Source: Escherichia phage NHEP29. Taken from it: DNA of 64,000 nucleotides. The stretch lies in the sequence record PQ511150.1; one strand, given 5' to 3'. The notes below the pieces were generated by a model. That model saw only the letters and a list, made by a program, of their open reading frames with translations. It was not told the DNA's origin and searched no databases. This document shows positions 51,902 through 52,553 of this stretch, piece after piece. A program made the translations under genes and the position numbers. Within the stretch, counting starts at the first letter, position 1; the number at the start of each line of letters is the position of its first letter.

Positions 51902-51931
51902 CAAAAAAGCCCCAACCTTTCGGAAGGGGCT
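51902..51931 (-). terminator. intrinsic terminator (copy 1 of a duplicated hairpin)
   Basis: minus-strand agccccttccgaaaggttggggct + ttttt; same sequence at 52526..52553. Confidence 0.65.
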
Positions 51932-51935
51932 TTGA

Positions 51936-52493
51936 TTAGTTTTTGTAATATCGTAAAGGGTTGATATGGAATGAAAGCATTGCGCGTGGAATAGGACGAC
52001 TCAAAAGACTCTTAAGTTTCCAACCACAGTAAACACGCAGATAAAATGTAATACCACCAACCTTAAGATAAGGTATAGCAGCGAATAATCCCCATGCAGA
52101 CTCGTTCCAAACTAAAAGATATCCATGATGTGCCGGATCAGGAGATCCAGATTTAGTTTCGGCGTTGCCTTTATAGTGCCATTCCGATGAAGCTTCGCGA
52201 CCTAAAACATGATACGAAAAATTATACGCTTTGTTGCGCCACAGCCAAGCTACGCGTTGAGCATATTTACCTATAACAGGAATTTTACGTATTTTAGACC
52301 AACGTTCAACATGGCCGCGGTCACCATCGATAGGATTATCGTAAGTCATCATCCAGTCAAAGCCATAAGGTAGTTTACCGGTTTTTTCACTATGGAATGG
52401 AACTACAAATGGTGCTAGAATAATTGCTAAAATCGCTGCGATCCAATCTATAGGAACAAGAACAACCCAACTTATGTATTTTAAAAATTTCAT
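51936..52493 (-). CDS. membrane-anchored protein (185 aa), late gene in rI.-1 position
   Basis: N-terminal TM helix; GAGAGGA SD; TATAAATA late promoter upstream. Confidence 0.65.
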   Translation of the reverse strand: MKFLKYISWVVLVPIDWIAAILAIILAPFVVPFHSEKTGKLPYGFDWMMTYDNPIDGDRGHVERWSKIRKIPVIGKYAQRVAWLWRNKAYNFSYHVLGREASSEWHYKGNAETKSGSPDPAHHGYLLVWNESAWGLFAAIPYLKVGGITFYLRVYCGWKLKSLLSRPIPRAMLSFHINPLRYYKN

Positions 52494-52517
52494 ATATCCT
52501 CTCTTAGTTTACAAGGA

Positions 52518-52525
52518 TATTTATA
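52518..52525 (-). promoter_or_regulatory. T4 late promoter TATAAATA
   Basis: minus-strand gTATAAATAtcc about 25 nt upstream of ATG at 52493. Confidence 0.6.
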
Positions 52526-52553
52526 CAAAAAGCCCCAACCTTTCGGAAGGGGC
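52526..52553 (-). terminator. intrinsic terminator after rI (copy 2 of duplicated hairpin)
   Basis: identical agccccttccgaaaggttggggct + ttttt. Confidence 0.65.

Follow-up and report, generated by a model that had tools for sequence, protein, structure and literature searches.

A late-type gene unit between terminator-like hairpin repeats behind rI in Escherichia phage NHEP29, and its probable movement by recombination between such repeats

Shuffled cassettes have already been described in outline in the T4-like phages, in which PeSLs (promoter-early stem-loops) are regulatory cassettes (Arbiol et al. 2010, PMC2839356; Comeau et al. 2014, PMC4122927). In experiments with phages RB49 and phi1, an open reading frame (ORF) bracketed by two PeSL motifs in one phage was found to correspond to a lone motif in its sister, the crossovers were mapped within the motif, loop included, and mini-circles were detected (PMC2839356). 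Here we analyze a comparable arrangement in a 64,000-nucleotide (nt) stretch of Escherichia phage NHEP29 DNA (record PQ511150.1; this whole stretch is "the window" below), where two identical hairpins bracket a DUF7338 gene just downstream of the lysis inhibition gene rI. The locus belongs to the tk-rI segment of a T4-like Mosigvirus phage, and its top DNA matches are Mosigvirus isolates at 97-98% identity.

The hairpin at this locus is, like that of the PeSLs, a GC-rich (GGGG...CCCC-type) stem-loop that flanks a non-essential ORF in a plastic region. In both systems the ORF appears to have its own expression signals, the terminators would leave neighboring transcription undisturbed, and recombination between motifs is proposed, with mini-circles as possible intermediates. 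They differ in that the repeat here is a terminator hairpin plus T-run only (28-37 nt), whereas the PeSL motif is ~100 bp long and includes an early promoter, and in that the promoter that would travel with the gene here is of the late type (TATAAATA), an early promoter being present only after the downstream hairpin and unrepeated. The NHEP29 cassette would thus extend the PeSL idea from early-promoter motifs to a linker made of a terminator and a late promoter.

We consider it probable (about 0.7) that the DUF7338 gene is part of an insulated late unit at the rI terminator, and that homologous recombination between short repeats of the terminator adds, removes and moves this unit. The unit would comprise a T4-type late promoter, the DUF7338 gene and a terminator, inserted at the intrinsic terminator behind rI. 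Its features are as follows (window positions):

52531-52554, minus strand: upstream hairpin copy, left cassette boundary; exact match, 6 nt past the rI stop codon
52527-52530, minus strand: U-run TTTT then G after the upstream hairpin, from the sequence; inside the 28-nt exact repeat
52518-52525, minus strand: TATAAATA, putative T4-type late-promoter -10 element; 24 nt before the ATG, directly past the upstream U-run
52497-52503, minus strand: Shine-Dalgarno sequence GAGAGGA, from the sequence; ends 3 nt before the ATG
51936-52493, minus strand: DUF7338 cargo gene, 185 amino acids (aa); Pfam PF24027, phrog_2143
51908-51931, minus strand: downstream hairpin copy, right cassette boundary; exact match, 4 nt past the DUF7338 stop codon
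51903-51907, minus strand: U-run TTTTT then G after the downstream hairpin, from the sequence
51908-52530, minus strand: 623-bp unit of putative late promoter, gene and one hairpin (one repeat period), present or absent in Mosigvirus
51864-51891, minus strand: putative T4-type early promoter (GTTTAC-type -35, then TG-TATAGT) of the DUF7438 gene that follows; promoter scan, conserved in all alleles, and in the annotation of phage SA35RD

The proposed mechanism gives the hairpins two roles. As RNA, the upstream copy would stop rI.1-rI transcripts, so that the cargo would be made only from its own late promoter, and the downstream copy would halt the late transcript ahead of the next gene, which is driven by an early promoter. 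As DNA, the hairpins would be short direct repeats (28-37 nt) with which the phage homologous-recombination machinery could delete, insert or relocate the unit, insertion perhaps taking place by way of an excised circle or by a double crossover during co-infection. Such recombination would explain both an indel of exactly one repeat period in Mosigvirus and the fact that Dhakavirus and Gaprivervirus have the unit at the tRNA locus, whereas in a minority of Mosigvirus genomes it lies behind rI.

The 24-nt sequence AGCCCCTTCCGAAAGGTTGGGGCT occurs exactly twice in the window, both times on the minus strand, and 100 dinucleotide-preserving shuffles gave no match to it, even with three mismatches allowed. 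An earlier sequence-only reading had reported an identical hairpin with U-run on both sides of positions 51936-52493; this is borne out at both sites, except that the second copy ends at 52554 rather than 52553. The exact direct repeat is 28 nt long (plus-strand positions 51904-51931 and 52527-52554) with a spacing of 623 bp. In the predicted RNA fold of each copy, a 6-bp GC stem is followed by a UU/UU internal loop and then by a 2-bp CC/GG stem that is closed by a GAAA loop, with energies of -17.9 kcal/mol (z = -4.0 against shuffles) for the downstream copy and -16.0 kcal/mol (z = -2.8) for the upstream copy. Both have the marks of an intrinsic terminator, namely a GC-rich stem-loop with a conserved stem and then a U-tract on the transcribed strand. 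We read the upstream hairpin as the intrinsic terminator of rI.1-rI transcripts and the downstream one as the terminator of the late DUF7338 transcript. Independently, the authors of the SA35RD record labeled the hairpin that they found at this site, in a genome without the unit, a rho-independent terminator, with a T4 early promoter after it. The upstream hairpin is followed by G-TATAAATA, which contains the motif of the late promoter that had been proposed for the gene, and then by the Shine-Dalgarno sequence and the ATG. The terminator and late-promoter roles, as well as the membrane-protein label of the cargo (below), are assigned from sequence features. The early promoter at 51864-51891 lies outside the repeat and is found whether or not the unit is present.

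The exact 24-mer is also found at the 3' end of the tRNA cluster in other T4-like genomes, past tRNA-Met, tRNA-Arg and a conserved trailer (...GCAGGTGGAACCCCGACAAGG...). Its counterpart in T4 (70830-70857) lies ~50 nt past rnaC (species 1 RNA) and shares its stems and loop; the two differences fall in the internal loop. The order tRNA-Arg, rnaD, rnaC, trailer, hairpin is kept in the loci that we label L012, L016 (Mosigvirus phiE142) and L017. Because the same element ends the tRNA/rnaD/rnaC cluster across T4-like genomes, we identify the hairpin behind rI as a paralogue of the terminator of the tRNA/rnaC operon, and both NHEP29 hairpins are copies of that element. This is a further difference from the PeSL motif, which belongs to a many-copy family and is present many times in hyperplastic regions, whereas there are 2 copies of the NHEP29 hairpin in the 64-kb window (3 mismatches allowed) and 2-3 blastn matches per genome. 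A 32-nt hairpin probe matches 1180 phage records by blastn, typically at 2 places in Mosigvirus genomes that lack the unit ("empty") and at 3 in those that have it ("full"). The tRNA cluster and its trailer fall outside the 64-kb window, in which a third hairpin copy was sought. An Rfam search near the hairpin found only tRNAs and no family for rnaC, rnaD or the trailer. If our reading is right, the tRNA/rnaC operon terminator is hereby identified as a recombination landmark.

Two observations on the surroundings of this hairpin may be added. Gaprivervirus phages DK-13 (L004 1786-2476) and VR20 (L009 3523-4224) keep the rnaD homologue, and rnaC is replaced by a 127-aa coding sequence without a Pfam hit; both retain trailer and hairpin, so that a conserved linker has variable content on either side. 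The exact 24-mer also occurs in other contexts in three metagenomic viral contigs (L010 2730-2753, L014 6962-6985 and L013 1161-1184), two of which have the common flank ...CTCTAACAAATG-hairpin-TTTTTTTGTAT; one is without the T-run.

Presence and absence of the unit were followed by comparing a 1701-bp locus query with about 159 close Mosigvirus records. The whole 1701-bp stretch is present in 22 of them, so the gene is far from universal at this position. The ~137 further records (94-99% identity), among them that of the type phage RB69, match as two pieces that span 1075-1081 bp and are thus ~623 bp short. Alignment shows a single hairpin in the empty allele, with the left flank of the window's left copy on one side and the right flank of the right copy on the other. 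In 14 genomes the rI stop codon and the early promoter are separated by either 43 nt (empty) or 664-667 nt (full), and no length in between was seen. This matches the PeSL case, where motif-ORF-motif in one phage stands against a single motif in a close relative, and a second example from Gaprivervirus is described below. An assembly artefact was rejected, since the structure is common to about 22 independently sequenced genomes. The locus is an unusually clean natural example of gain and loss: a 623-bp unit with exact junctions, both alleles in many isolates, and two loci across genera.

When ordered by the similarity of their flanks, full alleles are mixed with empty ones. The nearest relative of the window's upstream flank is empty (NHEP10, 0.9% distance), and so is that of its downstream flank (ST2, 3.1%). 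Cassette diversity among the full alleles is 0-3.8%, comparable to flank diversity. Because the alleles do not sort by flank similarity and the cassette is about as diverse as its flanks, we regard the locus as an old polymorphism that has been repeatedly reshuffled, rather than one recent insertion.

The same diversity implies that the cassette is old in the genus, as it would be if this were a pure deletion polymorphism: the Mosigvirus ancestor would have had the cassette behind rI, most lineages would have lost it through recombination or slippage between the 28-nt repeats, and the single hairpin would be the scar. All empty alleles examined, including those of the divergent species phiC120 and of the type phage RB69, indeed have the rnaC-type hairpin behind rI, and three of the bases past the rI-locus hairpin resemble those past the T4 rnaC terminator (H-TTTTGGCATCTA vs H-TTTTGGTATCTA, where H is the hairpin). 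Short homologies are sufficient for deletions in T4, according to Singer 1982 as cited in PMC2839356. Pure deletion would still need at least one earlier relocation between the tRNA and rI loci, which makes it a sub-case of the explanation that we prefer, and the scatter of full alleles among empty ones by flank similarity would call for many independent losses or extensive recombination. We regard pure deletion as possible but rather unlikely. Gain and loss would in any case use the same repeats.

In two of the phages the repeat is longer. KMB38 and PTK have TAATCAA ahead of both hairpin copies, which makes a ~36-nt repeat and probably records gene conversion or another crossover position. 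Ahead of the hairpin, the 3' end of rI in these phages (KMB38, L002 2631-2662; PTK, L020 2632-2663) reads ...CTAATCAA, which resembles the 3' end of the DUF7338 gene and not ...CTAATTTACT.

DUF7338 homologues are present in 553 phage records, some of them at other loci. At the tRNA locus of Dhakavirus MX01 the order is trailer, hairpin, TTTTTGTATAAATAT..., DUF7338 gene, stop codon plus 4 nt, identical hairpin, T-run, early promoter and e.8. MX01 thus has the window's architecture at a different locus and in a different genus. Both of its hairpins carry the compensated stem variant AGGCCC...GGGCCT. The Gaprivervirus phages DK-13, VR20, UPEC01 and CJ20 have the exact Mosigvirus-type hairpin and TATAAAT(A/C) ahead of DUF7338 and a different hairpin behind it, and Karamvirus PG7 has a different hairpin and CATAAATA ahead of the gene. 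The order hairpin, T-run, (G)TATAAAT precedes DUF7338 in MX01, AnYang and the four Gaprivervirus genomes and an IP-like (internal protein-like) gene in L017; the late-type motif directly past the hairpin T-run is kept in Dhakavirus and Gaprivervirus as TATAAATA or TATAAATC. The Gaprivervirus-type genomes provide the second presence/absence case, L012 being empty and DK-13 and VR20 (L009) full, with the junctions in a 13-nt repeat, GGGCTTTTTTATA, that lies inside the terminator arm and T-run. The MX01 architecture, this Gaprivervirus polymorphism and the interleaved Mosigvirus alleles together support the notion, put forward in the sequence-only reading, of a possibly horizontally exchanged cassette.

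It could be argued that the hairpins are identical because selection or convergence has made both of them optimal terminators, and that the gene arrived by illegitimate recombination in the manner of a moron, the repeats being uninvolved. At the rnaC locus the hairpin shows strong conservation between genera, cassette or not, which implies real purifying selection, and unrelated terminators flank DUF7338 in PG7, RB16 and STP4-a. But the indel has exactly the length of one repeat period, all sampled genomes with an empty site have a clean single copy there, and the independent Gaprivervirus indel also has its junctions within a shared sequence (GGGCTTTTTTATA). Since it also predicts neither the variant common to both MX01 copies nor the extended repeat of KMB38 and PTK, we find this explanation very improbable, and continue with recombination between the repeats.

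The site past the rnaC hairpin is not reserved for DUF7338. Its occupants include IP-like genes (MKTYNEF... or MYTVNEF...) in L015, L016, L017 and AnYang, and e.8 in T4. AnYang has a hairpin, DUF7338, a second hairpin and then a late-promoter motif with an IP-like gene, and in ABTNLsp5 (L037) an IP-like gene, a small terminator, DUF7338 and the hairpin follow one another, so that the order of the DUF7338 and IP-like cassettes is permuted among Dhakaviruses. L015 has the ABTNLsp5 arrangement with DUF7338 reduced to a remnant, MKLLK* ... AMLAFHINPFRFYKN*. In this remnant (L015 1040-1150) the start ATG AAA CTT TTA AAA TAA and the last 15 codons (AMLAFHINPFRFYKN*) are left, the middle is deleted, and the AGGCCC...GGGCCT hairpin still follows. 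In phiE142 (L016 352-384, minus strand) a second, diverged hairpin, AGCCCTAGCCAAAAGGTTGGGGCT, whose internal loop is closed by pairing, comes after the IP-like gene and is followed by another IP-like gene (MKTYA...), so the Mosigvirus tRNA locus also appears to be an array of hairpin-separated cassettes.

These arrays invite comparison with the IP loci of the T-even phages, where one late cargo gene takes the place of another at a set position flanked by conserved regulatory linkers (Repoila et al. 1994, as reported in PMC2839356 and PMC4122927); IP-like genes and DUF7338 likewise use one post-rnaC-hairpin site. The elements associated with the IP genes are T4 early promoters and weaker, AT-rich stem-loops (Arbiol et al., PMC2839356), in contrast to the GC-rich terminator and late promoter proposed here, and the IP cargo is a capsid-targeted internal protein whereas DUF7338 is a predicted membrane protein. 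There is also a likeness to integrons, to whose cassettes Arbiol et al. compare the PeSLs too (PMC2839356): the site is array-like, with promoter-proximal cassettes that each end in an imperfect hairpin and vary in number and order. The Dhakavirus arrays may be written H-DUF7338-H, H-DUF7338-h-IP and IP-t-DUF7338-H, where H and h are hairpins and t is the small terminator. Unlike an integron, the locus has no evident integrase or dedicated recombinase, each cassette has its own predicted promoter, and the hairpin, with its U-run, has the form of an intrinsic terminator and not of an attC site. One might go further and propose that the rnaC-type hairpin is a portable att-like site for a small family of late-gene cassettes (DUF7338, IP-like), which would be lined up as in an integron where the tRNA operon ends and would now and then hop to secondary hairpins such as that behind rI. 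The hops could use excised circles, perhaps aided by a structure-specific phage protein that recognizes GCCC...GGGC, and the flanking pairs would co-evolve by gene conversion, as is suggested by the compensated stem variant that the two MX01 copies share. We think of this stronger version as doubtful.

The predicted autonomous promoter-gene-terminator unit between rI and the DUF7438 gene, which are adjacent in most relatives, also agrees with the definition of a moron. Most descriptions of morons concern temperate phages, and expression from the prophage is common. According to PMC2839356, classical morons are believed to be acquired through illegitimate recombination, with no conserved sequences on either side. 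The NHEP29 unit differs from them in its identical flanking repeats, its virulent host phage and its predicted late lytic promoter.

The cassette might have been spread by co-conversion driven by a nearby homing endonuclease (SegB-type at the tRNA locus, MobD-type near rI) instead of by hairpin recombination. In T4, segB is directly upstream of tRNA-Arg and the mobD genes are just downstream of rI.-1, and in AnYang a gene annotated "homing endonuclease" adjoins the tRNA-locus region. SegB is reported to drive the preferred inheritance of the T4 tRNA region, in work referred to in PMC4122927. No endonuclease gene was seen in the cassette or the immediately flanking window ORFs, the wider neighborhood not having been screened; moreover, co-conversion would move tracts of variable length, not exactly one repeat period with hairpin junctions. 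We therefore judge endonuclease-driven spread very improbable relative to recombination between the terminator repeats.

Several points weigh against recombination between the repeats as we have presented it. A full Mosigvirus ancestor followed by repeated losses would account for the data no less well than gain, and interleaved alleles can come from recombination in the flanks alone, T4-like phages recombining so freely. The closest DUF7338 protein outside Mosigvirus is only 77-78% identical, and no recent donor is known. The two hairpin copies differ by 1-2 nt in TH58, PHB12 and AV109, with the substitutions in the upstream copy, and by more in AnYang. The identity of the copies may be due to purifying selection for a good terminator and not to any recent duplication or conversion; it is unsurprising, because only 24-28 nt at about 2% divergence are involved. 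As to the terminators, a simple terminator scan flagged neither hairpin, because the internal loop breaks its contiguous-stem rule. In favor of the hairpin, two stem pairs (C3G/G22C and C5G/G20C) carry compensatory changes among the collected variants and 98.6% of cells are paired, but this percentage is optimistic, since the variant set was gathered partly with a filter that required pairing. Finally, TATAAATA is not enriched in the window (5 found vs 7.2 expected), although all 5 are on the coding (minus) strand.

The cargo gene had been called a membrane protein gene in the sequence-only reading, and the 185-aa ORF at 51936-52493 does have one predicted transmembrane helix. It matches Pfam DUF7338 (PF24027) with E=5.3e-62 (209 bits against a cut-off of 27) and phrog_2143 with E=4e-79. 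The protein is predicted to have one long N-terminal transmembrane helix, and its basic domain (net charge +11) to combine helices with a sheet of five to six strands; the AlphaFold2 model has a pLDDT of 93.8. A deep profile search gave 727 representatives (clusters at 50% identity), all of them single-domain proteins of ~160-215 aa and hence without an informative domain fusion, and the invariant residues cluster in three motifs, TYDNPIDGDxGHxERW, AWLWRNKAYNF and RxYxGWKxK; D52, H61, R64, W83-N87, R153 and K159 are among them. Comparison with solved structures found nothing that resembles the protein, there was no curated family match beyond the DUF, and a literature search found no paper that mentions DUF7338. 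Among nine Mosigvirus alleles pN/pS (nonsynonymous relative to synonymous polymorphism) is about 0.06; the gene is under purifying selection and, on this evidence, functional where it is present. Because isogenic-like phages with and without it exist, it is also dispensable in nature. Our best guess is that the product is a late-expressed, membrane-anchored accessory protein with an envelope-associated role, dispensable for growth. Widespread, strongly constrained, predicted to be late-expressed and membrane-anchored, and without a solved-structure match, DUF7338 is a good target for functional study, and since T4-like phages are widely used in phage therapy, gain and loss of accessory genes bears on their host range and safety.

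A connection of the gene with lysis inhibition, which its place next to rI had suggested, was dropped. Other genera have the gene at the tRNA locus and not beside rI, and its position in NHEP29 is not evidence for such a role. Homology to T4 rI.-1 was also rejected, the best BLASTP E-value against RB14 rI.-1 being 0.16 over 12 residues; in Tequatrovirus the position after rI is held by the unrelated rI.-1 and a different terminator (seen in RB14). The label "holin" in a few database records of DUF7338 homologues carries no stated evidence. The model of the protein has a ~150-residue, confidently folded helix/beta-sheet domain with invariant polar residues, unlike typical holins, and no endolysin gene adjoins DUF7338 in the window.

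DUF7338 genes were also seen inside or beside tRNA arrays in unrelated groups (Straboviridae, Felixounavirus). Such sites are JohannRWettstein L008 2404-3143, PG7 L006 2357-3426 and RB16 L007 1729-3070, and in Felixounavirus the gene is between tRNA-Leu and tRNA-Gln with spacers of only ~10-20 nt. The association with tRNA genes may reflect function or the mere plasticity of tRNA regions. The gene neighborhood of a distant family member, P0031, was uninformative.

All genes of the NHEP29 segment are on the minus strand, and small DUF7438 and DUF7189 genes lie further past DUF7338. The Pfam match confirms that the gene upstream of the cassette is rI, as had been proposed. The features around the unit are:

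53116-53697, minus strand: tk
53113-53120, minus strand: TATAAATA, probable late promoter of rI.1-rI, overlapping the tk stop codon; T4 late promoter in the SA35RD annotation
52876-53088, minus strand: rI.1-like gene
52561-52863, minus strand: rI (antiholin), the context gene whose putative terminator hosts the cassette; Pfam Antiholin E=5.7e-24, phrog_1246 "lysis inhibition"
51657-51836, minus strand: DUF7438 gene, next after the early promoter

The motif at 53113-53120 suggests a late rI.1-rI transcript that would end at the upstream hairpin. Further downstream, a 15-nt inverted repeat (51400-51414 / 51423-51437; 51400-51442, minus strand) overlaps a T4-type early promoter sequence (TTTACG, 17 nt, TATAGT) upstream of a 40-aa ORF at 51275-51397. 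An early promoter that contains a stem-loop in this way corresponds to one PeSL subclass of Arbiol et al. (PMC2839356).

Some Mosigvirus records depart from the two main alleles. An allele class with a span of ~1343 bp was considered as a case of other cargo at the same site, and this was rejected, because the difference is a separate indel further downstream and the rI site is empty (SA35RD). This ~265-bp indel, downstream of the DUF7438 gene, gives SA35RD (L030 644-1302), DCP548, HX01 and VIPECOMC06 extra small ORFs relative to the window, so the rI neighborhood appears to hold at least two independent presence/absence polymorphisms. In phage WFK (L031 1142-1591) a single 450-nt coding sequence is annotated where rI.1 and rI normally sit, and the matched span is ~75 bp below that of the other empty alleles; a deletion may have fused or truncated rI.1/rI. 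The ST2 record (L027, OM982647.1) has the taxonomy line Guernseyvirinae; Kagunavirus, yet the tk-rI region of its 171-kb genome is typical of Mosigvirus and shares 97% identity with the window; the record is probably mislabeled.

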